A stretch of DNA of 32,000 nt. It comes from an uncultured Deinococcaceae bacterium. Its GTDB lineage: Bacteria > Deinococcota > Deinococci > Deinococcales > Deinococcaceae. The position numbers were made by a program, and so were the translations under genes. Position 1 is the stretch's first letter. Each line of letters begins with the position of its first letter. Below are positions 676-29,942 of this stretch, one piece after another. Where the stretch lies: positions 56,308 through 88,307 of the forward strand of contig CAXULY010000021.1 of assembly GCA_964252075.1 (NCBI GenBank). Direction: 5' to 3'. Under the pieces are notes generated by a model. It was not told the origin of the DNA, ran no database searches, and worked only from the letters and a program-made list of their open reading frames with translations.

Positions 676-1317
676 TCACTTCAGCAGCCCGAAGATTTTG
701 CGCGCACGCGCCGCCAGCGTGAACTTGCCTGACAGGTCAGTGTCCGCGTCCAGCGCCAGCAGCTGACCATCATTCACGTACCCCACCCGCTCGTAGCGAC
801 CATCGGCCATCAGGTACGCCTCACCGCTGAACCCCACCTGACCTTCCTGACTGTAGCCGGACAGGTAGAGGGTGCCGCGCCCCGCCTTATCCCGCAAGGC
901 CACGATCAGGTGCAGGCCCATGACGGCATTTGACGCGCTGACCCCCTCACGCCTCCACGCCTCGGTCGCGGCGTTCCGCCGCACCTCACCCAACCAGTAC
1001 AGGTAGTAGTGGAAGTAGCTGGGCCACACCTCGTTCGAGAGGGTGAGGCCTTCAGGGTACGCCTTGCGGTCGAAGACGGCGTTGAAGATCAGGAACCCGC
1101 CGTCCGCCTCGGCGGTGATGTTGCAGCCGCAGTCTTTGACGTAGCGCGCCTCGCGCTTGTCGGTGTAGTTGAGGTAGTTGGGGTTCACCTGCTGCACCGC
1201 CGCCGAGAGGTACGCCTTGTAGTTGCTGCCCAGACCGTTGCTGTGGAAATTCACCACGCTGCCCGCGCTGGCCGCCCCGCACAGCGCCAGGGCGAGTGCC
1301 CATGCCTTCATGCTCAT
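676..1317 (-). CDS. Secreted hypothetical protein (213 aa) with an N-terminal signal peptide (MSMKAWALALALCGAASAGS)
   Basis: This is the C-terminal part of tracked ORF 676-2274(-), starting at the ATG complementary to 1315-1317. It has a hydrophobic signal-like N-terminus and a natural-looking, Tyr/Asn-containing composition. A TAnnnT box (TACCCT) sits 6 nt upstream of the ATG. Its orientation is opposite to all neighbouring genes. Confidence 0.75.
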   Translation of the reverse strand: MSMKAWALALALCGAASAGSVVNFHSNGLGSNYKAYLSAAVQQVNPNYLNYTDKREARYVKDCGCNITAEADGGFLIFNAVFDRKAYPEGLTLSNEVWPSYFHYYLYWLGEVRRNAATEAWRREGVSASNAVMGLHLIVALRDKAGRGTLYLSGYSQEGQVGFSGEAYLMADGRYERVGYVNDGQLLALDADTDLSGKFTLAARARKIFGLLK

Positions 1318-2331: not shown

Positions 2332-2589
2332 ATGGCTGATGAATCGAAAGGCAAGGGGGTCGTGAGCCCCACGCCGGACACCCCGACCGCCCCGCAGAAC
2401 AGCGGCCCGGCCACCCCGCCGGACGCCGCACCCACCACCGAGCCGCGCCTCGCCCTCTCGCGCTTCCTGGCGACCGAGCCGGGCGTGCGCCCCGTAACGC
2501 GCACCATCCTCACCAAGGTCTTCGGGGACGAGAAGCACACCGCGAGCGAGTGGCGCGCGCTCGTGCAGCAGAACCGGGGGAATGAATGA
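2332..2589 (+). CDS. Small hypothetical protein (85 aa, Pro/Thr-rich N-terminus)
   Basis: GGAGGA lies about 6 nt upstream of ATG 2332. Its stop overlaps the sheath start (ATGA at 2586-2589). Confidence 0.65.
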   Translation: MADESKGKGVVSPTPDTPTAPQNSGPATPPDAAPTTEPRLALSRFLATEPGVRPVTRTILTKVFGDEKHTASEWRALVQQNRGNE

Positions 2590-4334
2590 GCACCGGGAAA
2601 TTCGCGGATTACTTCGCGGGGCGCGCCATCACGCTGCCCGGCGTGTACACCGACACGGACGCGTCCGCGCTCGTCGCGCCGTCCGGCGTGCCGCAACGCG
2701 CCATGGTGATTGTGGACGTGGCGCGCGGCGGGAACGTCGGCCTCGCGACGCGCGTGCCCGCCGCGCAGGTCGTGCCGCTGCTGCGCGGCGGGCACGGCGC
2801 GCAGCTCGCCAGCATCGCCACGAACGAGGGCGGCCTCAAAGAGGTGTTCTTCGTGCGCGTGAACGCCGCCACCGCGGCGGCGCTCGACGTGGGTGACGGC
2901 ACCATCACGCACCGCAACCCCGGCACGGGCAGCCGCGCCACGAAGGTGGAGCGCAGCGCGAACGCCGCCCGCGCGGACGCCTGGGACGTGCGCGTGACCG
3001 ACACGTCCGGCGCCTTCCCGCCCGAGGCGTACCTCGGCCTTGGCCCGGTGCTGGACGTCACGTACGCTGGCACGGGCAGCGCGCCCACGCTCGCCATCAC
3101 GGCGGCGACCGGCACCACCACCTTCACGTTCGGCGCGACGGACGACACGGACGCCGTGGAGGTCGTGACGAGCGACCAGGCCGCGACCGCGCAGCTCCTC
3201 GCGGACTTCCTGAACGGCACGCCCAGCTGGACCGCGAAGGTCTCGGGCAACCCGGCGTTCCCACTCGCGCAGGTGCCCGCGCAGACCGTGACGTTCACGG
3301 CCAGCAAGGGCAGCGTGTCGGGCGGCTTCAACACCATCGCGGTGGCGCTGGAGAACAGCAACATCGTGGCTGGCACGCCCAAGGCGGGCGCGGCGCGCCT
3401 CACGAGCGGCGCGGAGTACCTGACGGGCGGCTCCGACGGCAGCGCCCCCACCACGAACGACTGGATCAGCGCGCTGCGCGTGTGCGAGAACCTGCCGGTC
3501 ATCAACATCGTGATCGGCACGGGCGACCCGGCGGTCGTCGCGGCGCTCGAAAGCCACGTGCTGCGCATGAGTGAAGTCACCGCGAAGCGCGAGCGCATCG
3601 GCTGGACGGGCCCCGGCCTGCAGGTCAGCAAGGCGGCGTTCAAGTCGGCGGCCATCACGCTGGCGCTGCAGTGCGACTCGTCGCGCATGGTCGTGGCGGG
3701 CAACGAGGTCATCACGAACGACCTGCTGACCCGCAAGCTCACGCGCTTCGACAGCACTGCGCTGGCGGCGTTCGCGGCGGCCCTGAAGACCGCCGGGCGG
3801 CCCGAGGAGCCCCTCACGCACAAGACCGTGCCGATGCAGCTGCAATACAGCTACGACCCGGACGCGGACCTCGTGGACCTCATCGAGGGCGGCGTCATGG
3901 CGGCGCACTACGACACCGAGGCGGGCCGCAACCTCATCACGCAGGGCCTCACGACGTACACGGATGACGCGAACGTCGCGTACCGCAAGATCGCCGGTCA
4001 GGACACCATCGACTACCTGAACAAGCGCCTGCGCGTCGCGCTGGAGCCGTTCGTCGGCAAGGTGGGCGACCAGACGCTCGCGCAGCAGGTCGTCACGAAA
4101 GCGGCGGGCGTGCTGAACAGCGAGATCCGCGACACCCGCAACCCGCGCGGCGTGCTGATCGCCGGGCTGGACCCCGAAACCCGCGCGCCCGTGAAGGCGT
4201 GGGACTCGCTGGTGGCCGAAACGAACGGCTTCGACGTGCTCGGCGTGACGTTCAACGCGCGCATCGTCGGCGAGATCGCCAAGGTGTTCGTGACCACCAC
4301 CCTCAAGCCCGTGACGCTCACGGCGAGCGCGTAA
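2586..4334 (+). CDS. Phage tail sheath protein (582 aa)
   Basis: The N-terminal ..AITLPGVYTDTD.. resembles the PGVY motif at sheath N-termini. The size fits, and the gene sits immediately upstream of the tube, chaperone and tape measure genes. Confidence 0.85.
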   Translation: MSTGKFADYFAGRAITLPGVYTDTDASALVAPSGVPQRAMVIVDVARGGNVGLATRVPAAQVVPLLRGGHGAQLASIATNEGGLKEVFFVRVNAATAAALDVGDGTITHRNPGTGSRATKVERSANAARADAWDVRVTDTSGAFPPEAYLGLGPVLDVTYAGTGSAPTLAITAATGTTTFTFGATDDTDAVEVVTSDQAATAQLLADFLNGTPSWTAKVSGNPAFPLAQVPAQTVTFTASKGSVSGGFNTIAVALENSNIVAGTPKAGAARLTSGAEYLTGGSDGSAPTTNDWISALRVCENLPVINIVIGTGDPAVVAALESHVLRMSEVTAKRERIGWTGPGLQVSKAAFKSAAITLALQCDSSRMVVAGNEVITNDLLTRKLTRFDSTALAAFAAALKTAGRPEEPLTHKTVPMQLQYSYDPDADLVDLIEGGVMAAHYDTEAGRNLITQGLTTYTDDANVAYRKIAGQDTIDYLNKRLRVALEPFVGKVGDQTLAQQVVTKAAGVLNSEIRDTRNPRGVLIAGLDPETRAPVKAWDSLVAETNGFDVLGVTFNARIVGEIAKVFVTTTLKPVTLTASA

Positions 4335-4345
4335 GGAGGCCCTGA

Positions 4346-4882
4346 GTGACGGTCTACAACAACTACAACAGCGTGAAGTCCCGCCACGCGAACACCGCCA
4401 AGGTGATTATTGACGGCGAGGTGGTCGCGGAGTGCATGTCGATCAGCGTGCAGGAGTCCGGCGGCACCGACCAGACGTACACGGTCGGTGAGGCCAAGCC
4501 GCAGGAGAGCATCCACAACCGCTACAGCGCCAGCGCGCAGATTCAGCGCGTGATCTTCAAGGACGGCGCGCTCCAGAAGTACACGATGGGCGGCTCCGGC
4601 CTGCTGGACCTCCCGACGTTCACCATCCAGGCGATTGACGAGATTGACGGCGCGGTGCTGTTCACCTTGATCGGCTGCACGCTCGCGTCGCGCAGCACGA
4701 ACATCCAGGCGAACCAGCGCATCATGAGCGACGTGCAGGTGCTCGCGCTGGACTGCCAGGACAAGGACGGGCAGGTGTCGGGCGGCAGCACCTTCGGGCA
4801 GGACGGCGGGGCGGGCGCCGCCACCACCAACGACACCACCCCGCGCGGCGGCAGCGCCGGACTGGGCCGACCCGTTCCCTGA
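4346..4882 (+). CDS. Phage tail tube protein (178 aa, XkdM/tube-like by position)
   Basis: GTG start at 4346 preceded by AAGGAGG (4332-4338). The size and its position directly after the sheath gene fit a tube protein. The C-terminus is Gly-rich. Confidence 0.75.
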   Translation: MTVYNNYNSVKSRHANTAKVIIDGEVVAECMSISVQESGGTDQTYTVGEAKPQESIHNRYSASAQIQRVIFKDGALQKYTMGGSGLLDLPTFTIQAIDEIDGAVLFTLIGCTLASRSTNIQANQRIMSDVQVLALDCQDKDGQVSGGSTFGQDGGAGAATTNDTTPRGGSAGLGRPVP

Positions 4883-5709: not shown

Positions 5710-5919
5710 GTTTTATTAGCAGGAATAAACCATGCGATGAATTCAGACCTCCGCTCAATGCTTCAAAAAGGCCTTTTTCCCGTGGTTGTCATAACAAACA
5801 GGGAAAAGGGTCGTATTTACTTGCTACTCATCCGGCTCATAGGCTCTGCTCAATTTGCACATCATCATTGACACTGTTGCAGACGAGCAATTTAGCCTAA
5901 TGAAGCCGCCCCAAGTTCA

Positions 5920-5948
5920 TTGACATTGGCGCGCTAACACATTACGAT
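5920..5948 (+). promoter_or_regulatory. Sigma-70-type promoter TTGACA-N17-TACGAT
   Basis: TTGACA at 5920-5925, an exact 17-nt spacer, and TACGAT at 5943-5948, inside the low-GC island. A second TTGACA at 5868-5873 lies within a duplicated 12-mer, TCATTGACAYTG (5865-5876 and 5917-5928). Confidence 0.5.
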
Positions 5949-6014
5949 GAAGGAGCCTGAGAGGGCGGGAAGCTTGACAGTCAGGACACCAGGGGCACCA
6001 AAGGCAAAAGGATT

Positions 6015-6042
6015 GCAGGTGCCTCTTGCCGGAGGCACCTGC
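6015..6042 (+). promoter_or_regulatory. Perfect 11-bp hairpin (GCAGGTGCCTC-ttgccg-GAGGCACCTGC) in the leader of the mini-ORF
   Basis: Read directly from the sequence. It lies about 60 nt downstream of the predicted transcription start and 18 nt upstream of ATG 6060. Confidence 0.55.
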
Positions 6043-6059
6043 GGAAAGGCAAGGTGACT

Positions 6060-6194
6060 ATGCGTCTAAACCAACGCAAGTCTACCAAAGCCACGCGCAG
6101 GCCTCAAGTCCCCGACTTTGAGGCAAAGGTTCAGCTGTTGAACCTGCTCGTGAATTTGGCGCGACTCGTCATCGAGTTGATCCAGCACTGGTAA
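6060..6194 (+). CDS. 44-codon mini-ORF (MRLNQRKSTKATRRPQVPDFEAKVQLLNLLVNLARLVIELIQHW)
   Basis: It runs from ATG 6060 to TAA 6192-6194, with AAGG upstream. Third-position GC is 32/44, higher than the local GC of about 55%. The N-terminus is basic and the C-terminus is a hydrophobic or amphipathic helix. A terminator follows. It is too short for the ORF track. Confidence 0.4.
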   Translation: MRLNQRKSTKATRRPQVPDFEAKVQLLNLLVNLARLVIELIQHW

Positions 6195-6237
6195 ATTGCC
6201 TCCTCGCGTGACCTGACCACCGCCCGCCCGCAACGGC

Positions 6238-6264
6238 AACGCCCCCGCAAGGGGGCGTTTTTCA
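6238..6264 (+). terminator. Rho-independent terminator (AACGCCCCC-gcaa-GGGGGCGTT followed by a T-run)
   Basis: A 9-bp stem with a GCAA tetraloop and a T-run, which closes the low-GC cassette just before the tape measure gene. Confidence 0.7.
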
Positions 6265-6307
6265 TTGGTCCCCACCCGCCCCCCGAGCGTGCGCCCAGCA
6301 TGACGGC

Positions 6308-9300
6308 ATGACGCAGCGCCGGGTCGAAATCGCCGTAGAGGGCAAGGTCGTCGTGGACGCCGACGTGACCAAGGCCAAAGAGAAGATCAAGGGCCTCAGC
6401 GACGACGGCCTGATCGGGCAGGGCCCCACGCCCAGCGACCCCAGCAAGGCGCCCAGCAACCCCTTCCAGCAACTCAACGCCAGCTACTTCGGCGCGCAGG
6501 CCGAACGCGCCCTCGCGGGCATCCTCCCCCTGATCGGGCAGGAGCACCGCACGCCGGGCCGCGAGCGCACCCTCGATGAGCGATTGGACCGCGCGCTCTC
6601 GAACGCGCAGCTCGGGCAGCGTGACGACCTCGTGGAGGTCCTGACGGGCCTCAAGAACGAACTGCAGCAGCAGCGCCTCACGCGCGGCGCGGGCAGCGGC
6701 GGCGGCTTCGGCGGGGGCGGCGCGCGCCCACCCGGCAGCCCCCCACCGCCCGAAAACGAACCGCCCACCCCGCCCAACAACGCCGGGAACTGGCTGAAAA
6801 ACGTTGGCGGCTGGCTGGAGCAGCAGGGCGGACGCAGCCTGCTGGGCGGCCTCTCCGGCACTTTCGGCGGCGCGGTGGGCGGGGCGCTCTTCAGTGGCGC
6901 GTCGCGCCTGCTGGCTGGACCCGCCGGTTGGGCGCTCGGCGGCCTGAGTGCGGCCAACTGGGCGTTTAACGCGGTCAGCAACGCCGTGACGGAAAAGGAC
7001 GCGCTGGGGCGGACGGAGATCCTGGGCCAAGCGGATTTGGCCCGTCAGTATGGCATTGACCGCAACATCATGCCGCTCTTCCGCACCAAGAACGGCTGGA
7101 GCAACAACCGCTTCCAGGCGCTCGGTTACACCGCCAGCGAGGCCGAGCACGTGGCGGCCCAATACGACCGGCCCGGCGGGATGTTGGGCGACGTGACCAG
7201 CATCCTGGGCTTCTCGCGCTCCACCGGGATGAACGAGGGCACGGTGTCGCAGATCGCCCGGCAATTCGGCATCGCGGGCGTCGGTGGCGCCCAGGGCGGG
7301 CACGCCGACGAGTCGCTGCGCGTCCTGAAGCTCGCCGTGACTGAAGGGCTTAAGGACGGGATTGCGGGCTCGGACAGCGTGGAGGCCATGAAGGGCTACC
7401 TGTCTCGCATCAGCAGCGGCGGCAACAGCGTGAACGGCACCAGTCTCGCGTACTTCGCGCAGATCATGCAGCGCCTGAACGCCGACCCCAACGGCAACCC
7501 AGCGATGCGCGGGCAGGCGGGCGCCAGCCTGGCGAGCGGGTTCATGGCTGGCGTGAACAACCAGTCCGACCCCGGCATGAATTACCTGCTGACCAGCATG
7601 TTGATGAAGGGCGGCAAGCTCCCCAGTGCCCGCGCGCTGGGCCTGACGCTGCCTGCGAGCGACCCGCGCAACGCCGGTGCCAAGCCCGACGAGTACGCCC
7701 TCACGGACGAGGGCGTGGCGTACGAGTCCATGCGCCAGCAGAGCCCCCTTCAGGCATCGCGTTACCTGCTGGAGCGCGCCAGCACCGGCAAGAACCCCAC
7801 CCTGCTGAGCGGCCTCTACAAGGACATTGACGCGGTGGCGGGTGGCAACACCCAGTTGCGCTACATGATGTACAAGCAGCTCAATCCCGGCGCCAGCGAC
7901 GAGCAGGTCTACTCGCTGATGGGCGGCAAGGGGCTCAGCGGGGTCATGGCGAACAACCCGCAGTCGCTGCAAGCGCACAAGACCGGCCAGAGCGTGACGT
8001 CCGACGTGCAGGCTGGCAACGTCGTCGCGGCCGACACCCTGAAGTTGCGCGGCGCCGAGGCGGACCGGGCGCTGGTCAAGAGCCTGGCGAGCCTTCAGGT
8101 GTGGGGCAACATGGAGCGGTCCCTGTCCGACATCAAGAACAGCGTGGCCGACCTGCAGGGCGGCTTCGCGCAGTGGTTCGCCAACTACGGCAACCCGCAG
8201 GGTTCGCTGGCGGGCGAGGCGGGCGTCAGCGGCGTGTGGTTCAATGGCGCGCGAGGGGCGCCCGGCCTGCAACCCGGCACGGGCCCCGGCACCGGCGCAC
8301 CCGGGACCACCTACACGCCCGCCTTCCAGCCCAGCGCCAGCGCCGCCCAGATGCGGATGCTCTCGGCGGTCGCGCAGAAGGAGACCACCAACGGCAAGGA
8401 CCCCGCAATGGACGCGCCCGGCACGTCCATGAGCGGACTCTTCCAGCTCAGCCCCGCGCGCGGTCGGGAGCTGGTGCAGAAGTACCTCGGCGCCGCCCTG
8501 AAGGGGGACAACACCGCCGTGCGCGAGTGGCTGCGCGCCCATCCCAAGGAAACCGACCAGATCAGCGCGCAGGAGTTGATGGACATTGACGGGCGACTGC
8601 GCGCGCAGGGCCAAAAGGACGGCGTGAGCCTCTCGGACGCCCAGTACGCTGGTCTCGCCGGCATGATCTGGCACCGCAACGGCGGCGGGAGCATCGCGCC
8701 CGCGCTGAAAGCCGGCAAGCTGGTGTCCGCCCCCCTGTCGGCCCTCGCGCGCGCCGGTGGTCCGGACGGCGTGAGCGACTACGACTACTTCCTGAATGTG
8801 CAAGGCAATTACACCAACCCCCAACTGCGCCCGGCCGCCCTGCGAGGCGCGAACGGCGCGCTGGGTGGCGGCGTCACCACCACCGCACCCAGCGACCCCA
8901 CGGCGCCCGGCGGCCCCGCTTGGAAGTCGTCGCCCGAAGGGGCGCGCATCGCCGCGACGGCCACCACGGCGCTCTCCGCCAGCTGGGCGGAGGAGGCCGC
9001 CGGGTGGTGCTCGCGCTTCGTGAAGCAGATCATGGTGAAGGCCGAAGGGCAGGCCGCCGCCGCGCTGTTCGGCGGCACCTCCAAGGACACTGAGGGCCGC
9101 TGGGGCAAGAAGGGCTGGAGCAAGACCCTCAGCGAGGTGGGCGGGAAGTCCGGCCTGCGCCCCGGCGACGTGGTGTTCGCGGACTGGGTGGACCCCAAGG
9201 ACGGCGTGAACAAGGGCCACGAGGGCGTCCTCGACGCGAACGGCAACGTGGTCGAGAACTCCTACCGCGGGAAGGGCGGCAAGCAGGTCACGCCGCTCGC

Positions 9301-9646
9301 CCGGTGGGGCCAGATCACGCACGTGGGCCGCTGGGGCGGCTTCGACGCCCCCGACGGGGGCGGTACACCACCAAGGCCGCCCGCCCGTCCGCCCAAGCCG
9401 CAGCGGCCCATCCCGCCACCCCCGCACGCCGAGGTGCCCGCGCGCCTGCGCGGCGCCCTCACGGCGGGCATGCAGGGGGGCACCACGCTGCACCTCACGA
9501 TTCCGGTGAGCGCGAACGTGCACATCAACGCGCAGCAGCGCGCCGAGATTGAGCGCGAGGCGGGCGGCTTCGCCGTGAAGGTCACACAGATCGTCGCGCA
9601 GAACCCCGTGAACGTCGCGGGCGTGCGTCAGGCGGCGCAGTCGTGA
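6308..9646 (+). CDS. Tail tape measure protein (1112 aa) with C-terminal lytic transglycosylase-like and CHAP/NlpC-P60-like regions
   Basis: The size and position fit a tape measure protein. It has Gly-rich hydrophobic segments (LLGGLSGTFGGAVGGALFSGA..). An SLT-like motif, AQKE(692)TTNG...SGLFQLSP, lies near 8340-8720. A Cys/His pair, GWC(901)SRFV ... GH(971)EGV, lies near 8990-9300. A Pro-rich tract follows at 9355-9440. Confidence 0.85.
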   Translation: MTQRRVEIAVEGKVVVDADVTKAKEKIKGLSDDGLIGQGPTPSDPSKAPSNPFQQLNASYFGAQAERALAGILPLIGQEHRTPGRERTLDERLDRALSNAQLGQRDDLVEVLTGLKNELQQQRLTRGAGSGGGFGGGGARPPGSPPPPENEPPTPPNNAGNWLKNVGGWLEQQGGRSLLGGLSGTFGGAVGGALFSGASRLLAGPAGWALGGLSAANWAFNAVSNAVTEKDALGRTEILGQADLARQYGIDRNIMPLFRTKNGWSNNRFQALGYTASEAEHVAAQYDRPGGMLGDVTSILGFSRSTGMNEGTVSQIARQFGIAGVGGAQGGHADESLRVLKLAVTEGLKDGIAGSDSVEAMKGYLSRISSGGNSVNGTSLAYFAQIMQRLNADPNGNPAMRGQAGASLASGFMAGVNNQSDPGMNYLLTSMLMKGGKLPSARALGLTLPASDPRNAGAKPDEYALTDEGVAYESMRQQSPLQASRYLLERASTGKNPTLLSGLYKDIDAVAGGNTQLRYMMYKQLNPGASDEQVYSLMGGKGLSGVMANNPQSLQAHKTGQSVTSDVQAGNVVAADTLKLRGAEADRALVKSLASLQVWGNMERSLSDIKNSVADLQGGFAQWFANYGNPQGSLAGEAGVSGVWFNGARGAPGLQPGTGPGTGAPGTTYTPAFQPSASAAQMRMLSAVAQKETTNGKDPAMDAPGTSMSGLFQLSPARGRELVQKYLGAALKGDNTAVREWLRAHPKETDQISAQELMDIDGRLRAQGQKDGVSLSDAQYAGLAGMIWHRNGGGSIAPALKAGKLVSAPLSALARAGGPDGVSDYDYFLNVQGNYTNPQLRPAALRGANGALGGGVTTTAPSDPTAPGGPAWKSSPEGARIAATATTALSASWAEEAAGWCSRFVKQIMVKAEGQAAAALFGGTSKDTEGRWGKKGWSKTLSEVGGKSGLRPGDVVFADWVDPKDGVNKGHEGVLDANGNVVENSYRGKGGKQVTPLARWGQITHVGRWGGFDAPDGGGTPPRPPARPPKPQRPIPPPPHAEVPARLRGALTAGMQGGTTLHLTIPVSANVHINAQQRAEIEREAGGFAVKVTQIVAQNPVNVAGVRQAAQS

Positions 9647-14364: not shown

Positions 14365-15044
14365 CCGTCGCGCAGGATGTGCTCGCGAGCGCGGACCCCC
14401 TGGCCGCGCAGGCGACGGCCGCGCACAGCGCCGCCACGGAGGACCTCGGCGCGGACGAGGCGCGCACCGCCGCGCGCGCTCTGCTGGGCGCGGCGCGCGC
14501 CGCCAGCAACGCGACCGCGCAGAAAGTCGCGCAGGACGTGATCGGCACCCTCGCGGACGCCGCGGGCGCCCTGGCGGGCGGCAACCAGGCGCAACTCGCG
14601 CAGGCCGCGCAGACCCTGGCGGGCGTGCAGGCGAGCGTGCAGGCCGTGCAGGCGAACCTCCAGGCGGGCGTGACGCTCGTGGACGCCGCGCAGCGCCTCG
14701 CGCTGAACCCGCAGGGCGCCCTCACGACGGACGCCACGACCCTGGCGAGCGTCCTGCGCGTCGCGGGCGAGTACGCGCAGCGCAGCAAAGCGCCGGGCCT
14801 CGCGCGCGCCGTGACGCTCCTGACGAGCCTCGCGAAGCACGCCAGTGACCTCGCGGCGAGGAAGGCGAACCAGCAGCCGCCCGCGCCTCTCACGCCGCTG
14901 GAGTTCACGCTGGGCGTCAGCGTCCCGTTCGCGCTCGACGCGCTGAGCGGCGACCCCAGCCAGAAGTACGTCACAGCGGGCCTCATGGGCGCGTCGAAGA
15001 CCCTCACGGCCCTCGCGGAGGCGCGCGCCGGGGGTACGCCGTGA
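14361..15044 (+). CDS. Ala/Gln-rich helical hypothetical protein (227 aa)
   Basis: GTG 14361 overlaps the previous stop (GTGA). It is trimmed from tracked ORF 14100-15044. Its function is unknown. Confidence 0.6.
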   Translation: MTVAQDVLASADPLAAQATAAHSAATEDLGADEARTAARALLGAARAASNATAQKVAQDVIGTLADAAGALAGGNQAQLAQAAQTLAGVQASVQAVQANLQAGVTLVDAAQRLALNPQGALTTDATTLASVLRVAGEYAQRSKAPGLARAVTLLTSLAKHASDLAARKANQQPPAPLTPLEFTLGVSVPFALDALSGDPSQKYVTAGLMGASKTLTALAEARAGGTP

Positions 15045-15646
15045 CGGTCGCGCGCGGCGCCGTCCTGGCGGGCGAGAACATCGTGACGCTCGCCGCGCGC
15101 CTCACCGGGGACGCGCGCAGGTGGCAGGAACTCGTGACGCTCAACGGCCTCACCCCGCCGTACGTGTCCGACGCGGGCGGGCCGGGCGTCCTCGCGCCGG
15201 GCGACGCGGTGCTGTACCCGACCTCCAGCGAACCCGCGCCCACCGTGGACGCGGCGCTGCTGGAGGTCCGCACGTACTTCCGGGACCTCGCGGTGGAGGG
15301 CGGCGACCTTCAGTTCAACGCCGCGGGCGGCCTCGTCACGGTGAGCGGCCTGGAGAACCTGCAGGCCGCGCTCGGGCGGCGCCTGCGCACGCTCATCGGG
15401 CGCCACCCGTTCCACCCAGGCTTCGGGAACCGCGCGGTGCTGGCGCTCGGTGAGGTGGCGGACGAGGGCGCGCTGGCGCTGCTGGCGAGCGACACGCGCG
15501 CCGCCATCACGCGCGACCCGCGCGTGCAGGACTGCGCGGTGGCGCTGGAGTGGGCGAGCACGCACGTGCTGCGCGCCCACCTCACGGTCACGCCCGTCCC
15601 GCCCGGGACGGTCTTCACCCTCTCGGAACTGCTGGACGTGCGGTGA
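15041..15646 (+). CDS. LysM-like domain fused to a gp25/GPW-like baseplate wedge protein (201 aa)
   Basis: The N-terminus GENIVTLAARLTGDARRWQELVTLNGL...LAPGDAVLYP is LysM-like. The segment LQAALGRRLRTLIGRHPFHPGFG matches the gp25/W signature. It lies upstream of baseplate J. Confidence 0.7.
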   Translation: MTVARGAVLAGENIVTLAARLTGDARRWQELVTLNGLTPPYVSDAGGPGVLAPGDAVLYPTSSEPAPTVDAALLEVRTYFRDLAVEGGDLQFNAAGGLVTVSGLENLQAALGRRLRTLIGRHPFHPGFGNRAVLALGEVADEGALALLASDTRAAITRDPRVQDCAVALEWASTHVLRAHLTVTPVPPGTVFTLSELLDVR

Positions 15647-15802
15647 TTACAGGCATCCGCCGCACGGCTCCGGCGCGAGCAGCGGCGAGAAGCACCCGCC
15701 GCAGGGTTCCGGCGCGAGCGTGAGCGCGAGGAGCGTCACGAGGGCCGCGAGGGCGAGCGCGAGGGTCTTGAGGGGCGGGACTGCGGTGCGGGTGGTCGTC
15801 AT
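15647..15802 (-). CDS. 51-aa hydrophobic peptide with a duplicated LAPEPCGGC motif (MTTTRTAVPPLKTLALALAALVTLLALTLAPEPCGGCFSPLLAPEPCGGCL)
   Basis: I reverse-complemented and translated it by hand. 48 of 51 third positions are G or C. It has a signal- or TM-like core. The TAA at 15647-15649 abuts the TGA of the convergent W-like gene. TAGCGT sits 6 nt upstream of the ATG. It is too short for the ORF track. Confidence 0.6.
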   Translation of the reverse strand: MTTTRTAVPPLKTLALALAALVTLLALTLAPEPCGGCFSPLLAPEPCGGCL

Positions 15803-15884
15803 GCCCGCACGCTAGCAGCGCCACGCGCGGGCATGGCCGGATTTCCACTTTTTCGCAGCGACCAACCGTGAATTCTTCAATCGG

Positions 15885-15986
15885 TCAGCAGGTGCCGCAC
15901 ACGACCGGCACGTCCCGCAGTGCGAGCGCGAGGGCGGTGAGGGCGAGCAGGAGGGCCAGGGGCAGGCGGACGCGCAGGAAGGTCAT
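15885..15986 (-). CDS. 33-aa hydrophobic peptide ending in CGTC (MTFLRVRLPLALLLALTALALALRDVPVVCGTC)
   Basis: Hand translation gives nearly all G/C third positions. It has the same architecture as the 51-aa neighbour, a TM or signal segment followed by a C-terminal CxxC, and lies 82 nt upstream of it on the same strand. Confidence 0.55.
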   Translation of the reverse strand: MTFLRVRLPLALLLALTALALALRDVPVVCGTC

Positions 15987-16088
15987 CACGCCCCGATGCT
16001 GGCACGCCGCGGCGCGGGGGGTGCGTGGTTTCGGTCTTGCGCACAGGCGAAATCATGGCCCCCCGCCTCCGACCGCACCCTTGAGCGC

Positions 16089-17150
16089 ATGAGCCGCTAC
16101 CCGAAGTCGTTTGACCAAAGCCTGGGCGACCTCGCCCGCTCCCTGTGGGGCGACCTGGGTAGGCAGCCGGACCTCGTGGAGGGCAGCGACCTGCGCAGCA
16201 TCCTCGAAGCGGTGGCGTTCCAGGTGGCGGACCTCAGTTACCGCCAGGAGGCCGCCATTGACGCGGCGGTGCCGGAGGCCATCTACCGCGCGTTCGGCTT
16301 CGAGTTGCAGCAGGGCGTGAACGCGCAGGGCGTCCTCACGGTGACGCTCGCGGGGCCCCTGCCGTACGACACCACCATCCCGACGGGCAGCGAGGTGCTG
16401 ACGGACGGCGGCGTGAGCGCCCTCACGACCGCGGAGCTCACCATCGCGGCGGGGCAGGTGTCGGGCACCGTGACGGCCCTCTCGGCGCAGCCGGGCGCCG
16501 CGGGGAACGTGCCGGCGCTGGCGTTCCGGCGCTTCGCGTTCACGGTGCCGGGTGTGTCGGGTGTGACGAATCCGCAGGCCTTCGCGGGCGGGCGGGACGT
16601 GGAAACCCTCACGGAGCAGCAGGACCGCTTCATTGCGTTCCTCGTGTCGCTCGACGCGTCCAGCGAGGGCGGCCTCGCGGAGCTGCTGCTGCGCACCACG
16701 CTGAACGGCGAGTCGCTCACCGCGTGCCGCGTCGTGGACGGCACGGAGGACCCCAGCATTCCGCCGGGGCGCTTCCTCGCGTACTGCTACCGCCCCGCGG
16801 GCATCACGGACGCCTACCGGGACGCGCTGTGGCAGGTCATGCAGTCGCGCCGCGCGGCGGGCGCGCTGGGCGCCATCGTGCGCGTGACGCCCACGCCGGT
16901 GGACGTGGTGGTGACGGTCGCGACGCGCCGCGCGGGCGTCGCGGTGGACCTCACGCGCGCCGCGCAGGCGTACTTCACCGCGCTGCCGTTCGGCGCGAAG
17001 GTCAGCTACGAGAACCTCATCACGGCCCTCACGACCAGCTCGCCGGACGTGCGGGAGGTGACGCTGGTGAGCCCGCCGGCGGACCTCATGGCGGCGACCG
17101 GGCAGCACTACCGGCTGGGGGACGTGCAGGTGAGTGAGGTGCTGCTGTGA
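16089..17150 (+). CDS. Baseplate J-like protein (353 aa)
   Basis: ..GVLTVTLAGPLPYDTTIPTGSEVLTDGGVSALTTAELTIAAGQVSGTVTALSAQPGAAGNV.. is the typical Baseplate_J pattern. The position fits. ATG 16089 is trimmed from tracked ORF 15996-17150. Confidence 0.85.
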   Translation: MSRYPKSFDQSLGDLARSLWGDLGRQPDLVEGSDLRSILEAVAFQVADLSYRQEAAIDAAVPEAIYRAFGFELQQGVNAQGVLTVTLAGPLPYDTTIPTGSEVLTDGGVSALTTAELTIAAGQVSGTVTALSAQPGAAGNVPALAFRRFAFTVPGVSGVTNPQAFAGGRDVETLTEQQDRFIAFLVSLDASSEGGLAELLLRTTLNGESLTACRVVDGTEDPSIPPGRFLAYCYRPAGITDAYRDALWQVMQSRRAAGALGAIVRVTPTPVDVVVTVATRRAGVAVDLTRAAQAYFTALPFGAKVSYENLITALTTSSPDVREVTLVSPPADLMAATGQHYRLGDVQVSEVLL

Positions 17151-26052: not shown

Positions 26053-27591
26053 ATGCCAGCAAACAAGACAGCAGACATGGACCACCTGCCCACCACCGAC
26101 CTGCAAGGCCTCAAGCTCGGCATGCTGACCGCGCACCTCCTCGCGCGCGGCTACACGCTTGCGGACCCCAGCCCGTTCAAGGGAGACATGGCCGAGCGCG
26201 CCGCCGCGACCGAAGGCCGCCTCATCGCGGTGCTGCTGCACGGCCCGCGCGAAGTGGCGGTCGCCGGGCTGACCCTGATGGGCGAGGACAGCGTGGGCGT
26301 GGAGGCCACCGCGTACGGCTTCCAGCTCATGCAGCGGGATCTGCCCGACCTCATCAAGAGCACCGCGTGGCCCACGGGCATCAACCTTGAGGCCTTCAAC
26401 GACGCGGACGCCCGGGCGCTGGACAAGCTCATCGCCGCCCTGCTGCGTTACGCCGACCCGGAGTCCTGGGAGGCCGTCAGGACCGCCACGGCGGACCGCT
26501 GGGTGGGCAAGCCGTATCACGAGGACGGCCACACGCTCGCCGACACCGCGTTGGGCATCCTCAAGGACGGCGCGGACCTCTCCCCCACCTTCCTGCACCT
26601 CGTGCACACTGCGCTGGGCCTCACGGACGCGCCGCTGCTGCCCCTGCCCAAGCCCAGCCCCAAGGAGGCCTTCGAGAAGCTGCGCGAGGCCACAGGCGCC
26701 GCCCTGAACGGCGTGCGCCCCGAAGACCTGCGCGACGACGCGCCCCTCACGCACGAGTTCAAAGAGAGCGACCTCGCGCGCGCCGCCCAAGCGGCCCACG
26801 AGGTGAACCGCGTGTGGAGCCTCACGCACGGCGACTTCTCGCACCGCACCTGGCTGGACGCGCCCAGCTGGCAGCGCGAGAGCGCCGTTAATGGCGTGCG
26901 CCACGTCCTCACGGCACTCCAGCAGGGCCGCACGCCCCGCCCCGAAGAGAGCCACGAGAGCTGGTACGCCGAGAAGGAAGCCGCGGGTTGGGTGTACGGC
27001 GAAGTCAAGGACCCCGACGCCAAGACGCACCCCTGCATGGTCCCCTACGACCAGCTGTCCTACGTGCAGCGCGCCAAGGACGCGCTGTTCAACAGCACCG
27101 TCACGGCGTTCCTGCGCGCCCTCGCGGGCGAAACGGTGCAGCCACGCAGCACCGTTCAGGGCGCCATCGAGTCCGCCATCCACCACATGAGCGCCGCTGG
27201 CGACGCGCTGAAGATCATCGCCCCGGGCGCGCCCACCGAGCACGCCCGCACCACGGCACCCCTGCTCGTGCTGGCAGAGGTGGCCGCGGAGCGCGAGCGG
27301 CAGGTCACGCAGGAGGGCTGGACGCCCGAGCACGACGACGCACACGCGCAAGGCGAGATGGCCGCCGCGGCAGCCGCCTACGCGCTCGCCGCTGTCTCAG
27401 GTTACGGAGCGCACACCTTGGCGGAAGAGGACAACATCGCCATGAGCCTGGACGAGCTCAGCAGGCACGCATGGCCCGAGGGTTGGAGCGGCAGTTGGTT
27501 CAAGCCCACCACCCACCGCCGCAACCTCATCAAGGCCCTCGCGCTGCTCACCGCGGAAGTGGAGCGCCTGGACCGCGCGGAGCAGGCGTGA
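26053..27591 (+). CDS. RyR-domain protein (512 aa): unknown N-terminal region, RyR-like domain, C-terminal EGWTPEHDDxH module
   Basis: ..AAHEVNRVWSLTHGDFSHRTWLDAPSWQRESAVNGV...ESHESWYAEKEAAGWVYGEVKDPDAKTHPCMVPYDQLSYVQRAKD.. (about 26770-27130) matches the bacterial/phage RyR repeat pattern (HExW..GW.YG..d...K.HP.lvpYdeL). ERERQVTQEGWTPEHDDAHAQGEMAAAAAAYA (about 27289-27385) is a motif I recall from phage proteins of unknown or NTP-pyrophosphohydrolase-like function, with low certainty. Confidence 0.7.
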   Translation: MPANKTADMDHLPTTDLQGLKLGMLTAHLLARGYTLADPSPFKGDMAERAAATEGRLIAVLLHGPREVAVAGLTLMGEDSVGVEATAYGFQLMQRDLPDLIKSTAWPTGINLEAFNDADARALDKLIAALLRYADPESWEAVRTATADRWVGKPYHEDGHTLADTALGILKDGADLSPTFLHLVHTALGLTDAPLLPLPKPSPKEAFEKLREATGAALNGVRPEDLRDDAPLTHEFKESDLARAAQAAHEVNRVWSLTHGDFSHRTWLDAPSWQRESAVNGVRHVLTALQQGRTPRPEESHESWYAEKEAAGWVYGEVKDPDAKTHPCMVPYDQLSYVQRAKDALFNSTVTAFLRALAGETVQPRSTVQGAIESAIHHMSAAGDALKIIAPGAPTEHARTTAPLLVLAEVAAERERQVTQEGWTPEHDDAHAQGEMAAAAAAYALAAVSGYGAHTLAEEDNIAMSLDELSRHAWPEGWSGSWFKPTTHRRNLIKALALLTAEVERLDRAEQA

Positions 27592-28397
27592 ACCTTCAGG
27601 GCGAGCTATTTCACGATGGCGATGTTGCTGCATCGACGCCTCTCGCGCTGGCGCTCGCCGAGCGCGACGCGGGCGCGCTGTTCGTCGTGAATCACTCCGG
27701 CGGCAAGGATTCGCAGGCCATGCTCATCCACGTGCTGGAGGTGGTGCCCGCGGCACAGGTTCTGGTGGTGCACGCCACGCTCGGTGAGAGCGAGTGGCCC
27801 GGTGCGCTGGAGCACGCCCAGCAGCAGGCGGACGCGGCGGGCGTGCCGTTCCTCGTGGCGCAGGCGAGCAAGACCCTGCTGGGCATGGTAGAGCGGCGCC
27901 ACGCGACCCGCCCGGAGGTGCCCTCGTGGCCCAGCGCCAGCACCCGCCAGTGCACCAGCGACCTCAAACGGGGGCCCATCACGCGCGAGGTGCGGCGGTA
28001 CGCCACCGCGCGCGGCATCACCCGCATCGTGAACTGCATGGGGCTCCGCGCCACTGAGAGCAGCGGACGCGCCAAGCGCCCCGCGTGGAGTGACCACGCC
28101 GAGCACGGTGCCGCCGGGCGCAGCTGGTACGACTGGCTCCCCATCCACACCCTCAGCACCGCGGACGTGCTGACCACAGTGCACGGCGCGGGCCAGCAGC
28201 TGCACCCGGCGTACGCCATGGGCAATGAGCGCCTGAGCTGCGTGTTCTGCATCATGGCCAGCGCCTCTGACCTCCGGAACGGCGCGCTGCGCAACCCCGA
28301 GCTGTACGCCCGCTACGTCGAAATGGAGCGCCGCACCGGGTACACGCTCCATATGAGTCGCAAAAGCCTGCCCGAACTGACCGGGGTGCCCGCGTGA
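27588..28397 (+). CDS. PP-loop ATP pyrophosphatase, PAPS reductase / DndC-like family (269 aa)
   Basis: SGGKDS PP-loop at 27696-27713, the family-typical ..RQCTSDLKRGPI.. and a C-terminal LSCVFCI. The GTG start overlaps the upstream stop. Confidence 0.8.
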   Translation: MNLQGELFHDGDVAASTPLALALAERDAGALFVVNHSGGKDSQAMLIHVLEVVPAAQVLVVHATLGESEWPGALEHAQQQADAAGVPFLVAQASKTLLGMVERRHATRPEVPSWPSASTRQCTSDLKRGPITREVRRYATARGITRIVNCMGLRATESSGRAKRPAWSDHAEHGAAGRSWYDWLPIHTLSTADVLTTVHGAGQQLHPAYAMGNERLSCVFCIMASASDLRNGALRNPELYARYVEMERRTGYTLHMSRKSLPELTGVPA

Positions 28398-28925: not shown

Positions 28926-29341
28926 CCGCCGCGGATTCGCAGCGCGTGCCGCCCGAGTACACGCCCGAGCTCACGCTCGTGGAGTGCCTTGATCGTTTGG
29001 CCGAGCGCTTCCCTCAGCACGTCATCCGGCAGCACCCGTCGAACGTCTACTACCGCTTCGTGTTCCCCACCTGGGAGCGGTCGGAGGTTTACCCTTCGTT
29101 TGCGCCGGACGGCATCCTGTACGGCCTCACGCTGCTGGCTGAGCAGCTGGGCTTCACGGCGGAGGTGTGCCTGACGCGTCCGGGCATCCCGGAGCGCGCG
29201 CGGAACGGCAAGTGCAACGCCGTCGTGTATGACCCGCGGTTTCACAGCGGGTACGGTCCCACGCCCGAGCACGCGCTCGCGCTCGCGCTGGAGCAAGCCA
29301 CGCGCCCACGCGCGCCGCAGGAGGACCACGATGCGGAGTGA
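28922..29341 (+). CDS. Hypothetical protein (about 139 aa; start uncertain, TTG 28922 or GTG 28946)
   Basis: The tracked ATG at 28850 was rejected because third-position GC is low across 28850-28921 in this frame, while the overlapping upstream gene has high GC3 there. Confidence 0.5.
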   Translation: MTAADSQRVPPEYTPELTLVECLDRLAERFPQHVIRQHPSNVYYRFVFPTWERSEVYPSFAPDGILYGLTLLAEQLGFTAEVCLTRPGIPERARNGKCNAVVYDPRFHSGYGPTPEHALALALEQATRPRAPQEDHDAE

Positions 29342-29942
29342 CGCGCCCATGAAGCGGTGCTCCAGGTGTGGCGGGCTGTTCCCGCGAGACACCGAGCACT
29401 TCTCGCGCGACGCCTCACGCGCAGACGGCCTGCTGGTCTACTGCCGGAGCTGCACCAGCTGGAAGACCCAGAGCCCCGAGGAGCAGCAGCGGCTGCGTGA
29501 GCGGCGCCGCGCGCGGTACTGGCGCCAGCCGGAAGTGGAGCGCGCCCGCCAGAAACTCGTCCGTCAGAAGCACGGCGCCACCATGAACGCGGCGCGCCGC
29601 TCCCGAAGTGAGGCGCGTGCGGCGGAGGGGTTCACGCCGGACGGCACGCCGAAGCGCTGCTCCACGTGCGCGCAGGTGTTCCCGGGGGACGCTGAGCACT
29701 TCCCGAGGGACCGCTCGCAGAAGGATGGGCTGAGGACCCGCTGCCGCACCTGCGAACGCGCGCGCGTGGCGGCCCGACCCGTCACGCCCGCACGCCTCAA
29801 GCTCAAGCGGGCCAGCAGCGCGCGCCGCAAGGAGCGGCGCCAAGCGGAGCCCGAGTTGCGCGAAGCCTACAACGCGTACCACCGCCAGTGGCAGCAGAAG
29901 CGCCGCGCCACCAGGCGCGCAGGAGAGAACAGTGACCAGTGA
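29331..29942 (+). CDS. Basic protein with two copies of a CxxC...CxxC zinc-ribbon motif (203 aa)
   Basis: AGGAGG lies 7 nt upstream of ATG 29331. KRCSRCGGLFPRDTEHFSRDASRADGLLVYCRSC and KRCSTCAQVFPGDAEHFPRDRSQKDGLRTRCRTC are internal duplicates. The linker and C-terminus are Arg-rich. Confidence 0.7.
   Translation: MRSDAPMKRCSRCGGLFPRDTEHFSRDASRADGLLVYCRSCTSWKTQSPEEQQRLRERRRARYWRQPEVERARQKLVRQKHGATMNAARRSRSEARAAEGFTPDGTPKRCSTCAQVFPGDAEHFPRDRSQKDGLRTRCRTCERARVAARPVTPARLKLKRASSARRKERRQAEPELREAYNAYHRQWQQKRRATRRAGENSDQ

Follow-up and report, generated by a model that had tools for sequence, protein, structure and literature searches.

A phage-specific insertion between baseplate genes W and J carries two tandem antisense mini-genes for putative small envelope peptides in a moron-like arrangement

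Phage context of the locus

The window analyzed here, that is, the whole stretch of 32,000 nt, has a GC content of ~70% (0.704). Pfam and PHROGs scans identified a contractile-tail module on its plus strand, which includes the following genes:

2586-4334, plus strand: sheath gene (phrog_279)
4346-4882, plus strand: tube-like gene
6308-9646, plus strand: 1112-aa ORF of tape-measure size, without Pfam or PHROG match
15041-15646, plus strand: baseplate W-like gene, 201 aa (phrog_975 baseplate protein, 1.8e-22)
16089-17150, plus strand: baseplate J gene, 353 aa (PF04865, 4.7e-16; phrog_6, 1.6e-32), the N-terminus of which aligns with those of homologues

Further downstream of J, PKD- and CBM-bearing fibre-like proteins are encoded. 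A codon model trained on twelve plus-strand genes of the window found exclusively plus-strand coding from ~1351 to 32000 and minus-strand coding at 676-1317, in agreement with the first-pass annotation, according to which two ORFs of 51 and 33 aa located between W and J are the only minus-strand genes besides the one at 676-1317. Neither an integrase nor a repressor gene was detected in the 32-kb window, and no tRNAs were found.

The closest homologues of J among 5.8 billion protein clusters are 38-44% identical to it. The best named one is encoded on a plasmid of Deinococcus geothermalis and the best matches from isolated phages belong to Thermus phages; together with the fitting GC content, these matches point to a host within the Deinococcus-Thermus phylum. 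Since even the best J homologues display only this level of identity, there is no close relative in which conservation of the minus-strand reading frames could be followed, and a search for J in genome and viral contigs returned no match, nor did the window's own proteins lead to any contig record.

An insertion between the W-like and J genes

The W-like and J genes are separated by 442 nt (15647-16088); the gap reported in the first-pass annotation is thus real, its length having been given as 443 nt. In six related loci encoding the closest J homologues (L001-L006, corresponding to four distinct phages: L001, L002, L003-L005 and L006) the two genes are only 21-36 nt apart, and in Thermus phages Cumys and Lalka8 they overlap by 4 nt. 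Comparison with these loci divides the gap into two parts:

15647 to ~16057: phage-specific insertion of ~410 nt, starting directly after the W stop codon
16058-16088, plus strand: retained ancestral W-J spacer of ~31 nt, immediately 5' of the J start, aligning with the spacers of L001 and L002 (CCCCCGCC...CACCCTTG)

It is the alignment of positions 16058-16088 with the L001 and L002 spacers that sets the J-proximal bound of the insert. Judging from this comparison, the gap arose by insertion, and none of the related loci examined contains the extra DNA. Its GC content (0.711) may be compared with those of the window (0.704), the W-like gene (0.756) and J (0.727), and no further copies of the mini-gene unit that it carries were found in the window or in the related loci.

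The gap had been described as devoid of a plausible plus-strand gene, and every plus-strand frame within it indeed scores negative in the codon model. The eventuality that the gap belongs to a longer plus-strand gene, which the first-pass annotation had named as fatal to an antisense reading, is ruled out by these negative scores and by the fact that W ends, and J starts, where their homologues do. An extended J gene starting at 15996 was likewise rejected: the homologues start at the position equivalent to MSRYPK, and the plus-strand frames score negative.

Two antisense mini-genes and their paralogy

Two ORFs are present on the minus strand of the insert, with the translations originally proposed; the shorter one also possesses an in-frame GTG at 15989, which would yield a 34-aa form, and is referred to below as ORF33/34.

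15647-15802, minus strand: ORF51, 51 aa, MTTTRTAVPPLKTLALALAALVTLLALTLAPEPCGGCFSPLLAPEPCGGCL; GC3 0.92
15653-15680 and 15692-15719, minus strand: in-frame duplication within ORF51 (39-nt unit), encoding LAPEPCGGC twice; 25/28 nt identical
15803-15884: spacer between the mini-genes, of lower GC content (0.62), containing a hairpin and a -10 motif
15885-15986/15989, minus strand: ORF33/34, 33 or 34 aa, (M)MTFLRVRLPLALLLALTALALALRDVPVVCGTC; GC3 0.94; start at ATG 15986 or GTG 15989

Gene calling on the 88,309-bp source contig had already listed ORF51 as P0011. It converges on the W-like gene, its stop codon directly adjoining the W TGA with an intergenic distance of 0 nt. The encoded peptide starts with a basic N-terminus, continues with a hydrophobic helix of 18-19 residues (hydropathy 2.19 in a 19-residue segment, preceded by a charge of +2 and followed by one of -2) and ends in an acidic tail, in which PEPCGGC occurs twice. 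ORF33/34 is similarly laid out: its N-terminus is basic, and its hydrophobic core, 16 residues long and located between arginines (flanking charges +1/0), ends in ALA, followed by LRDVPVVCGTC, such that CGTC constitutes the C-terminus.

The two mini-genes are tandem paralogues, as judged from their colinear alignment, which extends from ~30 nt upstream of the ORFs through the CxxC motif with a local score of 35, compared to 14.4 +/- 2.4 for 1000 dinucleotide shuffles. In this alignment GTG 15989 of ORF33/34 coincides with the ATG of ORF51, and two of the three gaps within the coding sequences measure 3 nt or multiples thereof, the third being a compensating 1-nt pair near the N-terminus, a pattern that favours coding as well. 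In tblastn searches of the window, apart from itself each peptide matches the other one best, with 43% identity over 37 aa. Composition-corrected BLASTP, which sees only the CxxC end, does not find the peptides significantly similar (E = 0.16). The dN/dS ratio between the paralogues (~0.77) is saturated and therefore uninformative.

Evidence for coding

Several features suggest that both mini-genes are probably real coding genes, although taken together this evidence is moderate. GC contents at the three codon positions are 0.69/0.62/0.92 in ORF51 and 0.76/0.50/0.94 in ORF33, as compared to 0.78/0.52/0.97 and 0.71/0.51/0.96 in the confirmed W and J genes, respectively; given each ORF's own GC content, the binomial probability of such GC3 values is 0.001 for ORF51 and 0.002 for ORF33. 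In both regions, the frame of the ORF is the only one of six to score positively in the codon model. On a per-codon basis, however, the scores (0.22 and 0.39) do not attain the range of the structural genes (0.52-0.86), and a handful of spurious antisense ORFs reach similar values. Also to be set against coding is the low complexity of the (Leu-Ala)n-coding DNA, which yields 3-nt periodicity by itself.

The internal repeat of LAPEPCGGC, initially estimated at ~21 nt, is real and longer than that, spanning 28 nt; as the copies are 39 nt (13 codons) apart, the repeat is in frame. Over the nine codons the copies differ at three third positions (gag/gaa, ccg/ccc and gga/ggg), all of these changes being synonymous and none nonsynonymous. 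The neutral probability of synonymous-only changes, estimated from the share of synonymous sites, is ~0.02, which indicates that the PEPCGGC motif has been under selection at the peptide level after the duplication.

Predicted expression signals

The following elements on the minus strand are relevant to the expression of the mini-genes:

15809-15814, minus strand: -10-type hexamer TAGCGT, preceded by TGC, 6 nt 5' of the ORF51 ATG; predicted leaderless promoter
15996-16001, minus strand: CAGCAT, 6 nt 5' of GTG 15989; positional counterpart of TAGCGT, not a TANNNT match
15800-15811/15824-15835, minus strand: hairpin with 12-nt arms (1 mismatch) and a 12-nt loop, the 3' arm of which, in minus-strand RNA, contains the ORF51 ATG

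The TAGCGT-N6-ATG arrangement in front of ORF51, already pointed out in the first-pass annotation, is present in the sequence. Within the 64 kb represented by both strands of the window there are 41 TANNNT sites, and only three ORFs with GC3 >0.85 have such a site 5-8 nt before an ATG or GTG, in each case with a spacing of N6: the 213-aa minus-strand gene at 676-1317, which is the sole long minus-strand gene of the window, the gene for a 512-aa RyR-domain protein at 26053 (with a perfect TATAAT) and ORF51. In the Deinococcus-Thermus group, leaderless genes typically carry a -10 motif ~6-7 bp upstream of the ORF, which suffices as a promoter, and the same position of the -10 motif, ~6-7 bp 5' of the ORF, has been described in D. 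radiodurans (PMC12340547); in D. deserti, 60% of the mRNAs are leaderless, including those of many novel small peptides (PMC4007540). A TANNNT at the leaderless distance from the start codon is found for ORF51 and not for ORF33/34. The suggestion that the mini-genes are expressed independently from the minus strand thus finds a sequence signature in the case of ORF51, i.e. the rare TANNNT-N6-ATG of the leaderless type. No sigma-70 consensus promoter (-35/-10) was found for the mini-genes, nor does the region 15400-16300 contain an intrinsic-terminator-like site on either strand; the only candidate, a GC hairpin spanning the two facing stop codons (15637-15666), has no U-tract and is not significant (z = -0.9).

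The 8-bp hairpin described earlier over the ORF51 start represents the perfect core of the 12-nt arms listed above. Folded as minus-strand RNA, the region reaches -32.5 kcal/mol (z = -2.73), a value that none of 200 shuffled sequences attained, as compared to -29.2 kcal/mol (z = -1.45) for the plus-strand RNA. If ORF51 is leaderless, the 5' arm would lie outside its mRNA, and the ATG would hence be sequestered only in transcripts that start further upstream, for example in read-through from ORF33/34. A role of the mini-genes as leader peptide or attenuator was rejected, there being no downstream gene on the minus strand.

Predicted topology and processing

According to the positive-inside rule, both peptides are predicted to adopt an N-in/C-out orientation, which would place the cysteines of their CxxC motifs on the extracytoplasmic side. 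An AF2 prediction for ORF51, made without an alignment, consists of a helix at residues 10-29 and an unstructured tail (mean pLDDT 64), and amounts to a generic helix only. With its terminal ALA, the hydrophobic core of ORF33/34 conforms to the classical -3/-1 pattern of signal-peptidase I sites, and the peptide could accordingly be cleaved after this triplet to release an 11-mer. A proline at +1 is known to block cleavage by signal peptidase I, and such a residue follows the only plausible site of ORF51 (TLA/P); for this reason, ORF51 probably remains membrane-anchored. Neither peptide qualifies as a lipoprotein, since the lipobox [LVI][ASTVI][GAS]C is absent and the residues preceding the first cysteine are A-P-E-P in ORF51 and V-P-V-V in ORF33/34.

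Searches for relatives

The two peptides were claimed to belong to no described family, and all searches concur with this. ORF51 and a profile of the two peptides retrieved only P0011, i.e. ORF51 itself, from a word-indexed collection of 5.8 billion protein clusters, and 1.84 billion representatives, scanned in full with HMMER, yielded P0011 and P0012, the latter being a repetitive junk translation. Neither peptide has a match in Pfam, PHROGs, NCBIfam or PADLOC, Rfam returned sub-threshold noise only, and the literature on the 'CGGC motif' contained nothing relevant.

At the nucleotide level, no relatives came to light when viral, genome and metagenome contigs were scanned for patterns with confirmation by tblastn; a back-translated LAPEPCGGC pattern found no match in viral contigs, and metagenomes contained no exact copy of a 22-mer taken from the spacer. 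The pattern CGGC-N9-CGGC occurs at 96 loci in the viral contigs of IMG/VR, all of which are GC-simple repeats or unrelated Cys-rich ORFs, with 0/96 displaying a hydrophobic N-terminus. Gene finders often miss small ORFs, so that the negative result in protein collections carries less weight than that of the nucleotide scans, which for their part detect only fairly close relatives.

A moron-like cassette

We consider the insert to be, with a probability of roughly 0.55, a moron-like cassette for two small peptides of the envelope whose CxxC motifs would face outward, the role being assigned by analogy and from the predicted topology. The insertion, the ORFs, their paralogy, the coding signatures and the promoter-type motif are seen in the sequence, and the scenario is inferred as far as transcription, translation, topology and function of the peptides are concerned. 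In it, ~410 nt entered the genome of a contractile-tailed phage directly after the stop codon of the W-like gene, bringing in two tandem, paralogous and antisense mini-genes for products with a basic N-terminus, one hydrophobic helix and a CxxC-ending tail. ORF51 would be transcribed alone, as a leaderless mRNA from TAGCGT, independently of the late operon and in opposition to it. Both peptides would insert N-in/C-out, which would expose the cysteines to the oxidising conditions outside the cytoplasm and let them engage in disulfides or metal binding, ORF33/34 perhaps being cleaved after ALA and ORF51 probably staying anchored. Their likeliest role would be a change of the host envelope akin to that brought about by other membrane proteins of tail-operon morons, for example by blocking the entry of DNA from superinfecting phages.

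Morons, as defined by Juhala et al. (2000) and summarised more recently, are recognized by extra DNA between neighbouring genes, a promoter, a terminator, deviant base composition and expression in the prophage (PMC3594210). The insert does represent extra DNA between genes that are adjacent in relatives (442 nt versus 21-36 nt or a 4-nt overlap). In contrast to classical morons, however, no terminator of its own was detected here and its GC content is the same as that of the phage, for which reasons we refer to it as moron-like rather than as a textbook moron.

The best parallel is offered by HK97, in which gp15, a small inner-membrane superinfection-exclusion protein, is encoded inside the tail operon (Juhala 2000; Cumby 2012; reviewed in PMC3594210). 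Like HK97 gene 15, the insert consists of extra DNA between adjacent tail-module genes, appears to encode small membrane-targeted products and, as a possible further likeness, displays signs of its own promoter in the case of ORF51. Unlike gp15/YebO, to which they show no sequence relation (no Pfam or PHROG match), the peptides are encoded antisense to the operon and by two tandem paralogues. A second parallel is with the leaderless genes of Deinococcus-Thermus (PMC12340547; PMC4007540), with which ORF51 shares its very small size and a TANNNT located exactly 6 nt 5' of the ATG; the mini-genes differ from those in being phage-borne and in that ORF33/34 has CAGCAT instead. Finally, P22 SieA, T4 Imm, phi80/N15 Cor and lambda Lom/Bor are phage-encoded envelope proteins produced apart from the late genes, as is predicted here. 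Those proteins are mostly larger or lipoproteins and are unrelated in sequence to the present peptides, which are without a lipobox and possess a CxxC tail.

The kind of element is thus already known, the two peptides themselves being orphans. A bolder proposal would be that they exemplify a new class of phage peptides, leaderless and single-pass, in which an extracytoplasmic CxxC would be the active part, serving perhaps to capture or wrongly oxidise some component with cysteines, be it of an incoming phage or of the envelope of the host, or else as a sensor of metal or redox state, with the antisense placement coupling shut-off to late transcription; we regard this as speculative and unlikely.

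Alternative explanations

The alternative that fares best, albeit an unlikely one, is that the ORFs are non-functional: the insert would be an insertion scar, a regulatory spacer or else a noncoding element of the repeat or MITE-like kind, whose GC-rich, low-complexity DNA of the (CTCGCG)n type is open on the minus strand by chance. High-GC DNA does give rise to long accidental ORFs in many frames, and the insert is a singleton without homologues in the searched collections; codon-model scores that are lower than in true genes and matched by a few spurious ORFs, the dN/dS ratio of ~0.77 and the lack of both a terminator and a consensus promoter all fit this explanation as well. It does not readily account, however, for the common succession of start codon, basic N-terminus, hydrophobic core, Pro-x-x-Cys-Gly-x-Cys and stop codon in both ORFs, for the low GC2 and high GC3 in exactly these frames, for synonymous-only divergence of the duplicated motif or for a rare TANNNT placed precisely where it would be functional relative to the ATG. 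A repeat is further disfavoured by the uniqueness of the unit in the window and related loci and by the empty Rfam result.

Type I toxin-like peptides are a more remote alternative. The hairpin would in this case sequester the ORF51 ATG in longer transcripts, pairing with the antisense late-operon RNA would act as a second control, and the target would be membrane integrity or lysis timing. Many type I toxins (hok, ldr, ibs, zor) occur as tandem paralogues, and both peptides are likewise shorter than 60 aa, tandemly encoded and equipped with a single hydrophobic helix; in these traits, as in their association with a mobile element and in the RNA structure that covers the start codon of ORF51, they resemble Hok/Gef, Ldr, Ibs, ZorO and TisB. 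Hok even shares with them an N-terminal helix followed by a periplasmic tail containing cysteine, and the late transcript is necessarily an RNA fully complementary to the mini-genes. Unlike type I toxins, though, the peptides show no homology to any toxin family in Pfam, NCBIfam or PADLOC, and there is no signal of an antitoxin sRNA, in that the insert lacks a plus-strand TANNNT from which one could be transcribed and Rfam is empty. The predicted leaderless mRNA, starting at the ATG, would moreover leave the 5' arm of the hairpin outside, and apparent selection on the CxxC motifs suggests a function beyond membrane poisoning.

Least probable of all is that the peptides are Sec-exported precursors from which removal of a signal peptide releases Cys peptides of 11 aa (ORF33/34) and ~21 aa (ORF51) with a metal/redox, signalling, bacteriocin-like or RiPP role: the core of ORF33/34, of only 16 residues and ending in ALA, and the CxxC motif, well known from metal binding and redox chemistry, would suit such precursors, but the proline at +1 of the only plausible site in ORF51, the lack of a lipobox and the absence of any RiPP or bacteriocin precursor match in NCBIfam do not. 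The related proposal in the first-pass annotation, that of precursors of modified peptides, is left without contextual support, given that the neighbours are baseplate genes, that no export or immunity genes lie nearby and that Pfam and PHROGs revealed no modifying enzyme among the ORFs of the window.

Implications

As a singleton without relatives in the searched collections, the moron-like cassette is for now of limited general significance. If its peptides are made, it would nevertheless provide a clean and compact example of a moron in the little-explored phage-host biology of Deinococcus-Thermus, and the leaderless, -10-adjacent mode of expression would enable an insert of ~0.4 kb to be expressed autonomously from within a late operon. 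The apparently selected PEPCGGC motif, for its part, points to an extracytoplasmic thiol or metal activity, which is absent from the known small exclusion proteins.

Possible accessory genes and putative signals around the tail module

The features concerned are the following:

676–1317, minus strand: 213-aa gene, the sole long minus-strand gene of the window
5710–6307: gap of ~600 nt that separates the tail-chaperone region from the 1112-aa gene
6308–9646: 1112-aa gene of tape-measure size, with no family match
15637–15666: 9-bp GC hairpin (CGTGCGGTG / CGCCGCACG)
26053–27591, plus strand: gene for a 512-aa protein with an RyR domain (PF02026, 9e-11)
27600–28397, plus strand: PAPS-reductase-like protein (phrog_424, 1.6e-43), downstream of the tail module
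29229–29942, plus strand: protein uniting endonuclease VII/HNH-like and Lar-like zinc motifs (phrog_1035, phrog_5558), also located past the tail module

The 213-aa gene carries TACCCT, a TANNNT motif, exactly 6 nt upstream of its ATG, a leaderless signature shared with ORF51, one of the two minus-strand mini-genes that lie between the genes for the W-like baseplate protein and baseplate J. Searches of its product against Pfam, NCBIfam and PADLOC returned no matches. The gene may represent a second accessory gene with independent expression. The product begins with MSMKAWALALALCGA, which resembles a signal peptide.

The GC hairpin extends across the junction where the W-like gene and ORF51, which converge, meet with their stop codons (TGA and TAA, respectively) directly adjacent. 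It lacks a U-tract, and its folding energy does not differ significantly from that of shuffled sequences (z = -0.9); even so, in a host of high GC content it could serve as a pause site or terminator in both directions. The W-like protein itself (15041–15646, plus strand), whose N-terminal segment of residues 13–42 matches a baseplate-hub PHROG, is ~200 aa long, as are its Deinococcus-type relatives (197–200 aa), whereas the protein preceding J in Thermus phages reaches only ~105–120 aa.

The gap upstream of the 1112-aa gene contains no convincing coding frame and has a lower GC content (~0.65); possibly, it is another insertion, or a regulatory or RNA region, within the late operon.

The RyR-domain protein strongly matches several PHROGs of unknown function, and its gene directly follows the tail-fibre genes. 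A perfect TATAAT is located 6 nt upstream of its ATG, so that a new leaderless transcription unit probably starts here, just past the tail-fibre genes.
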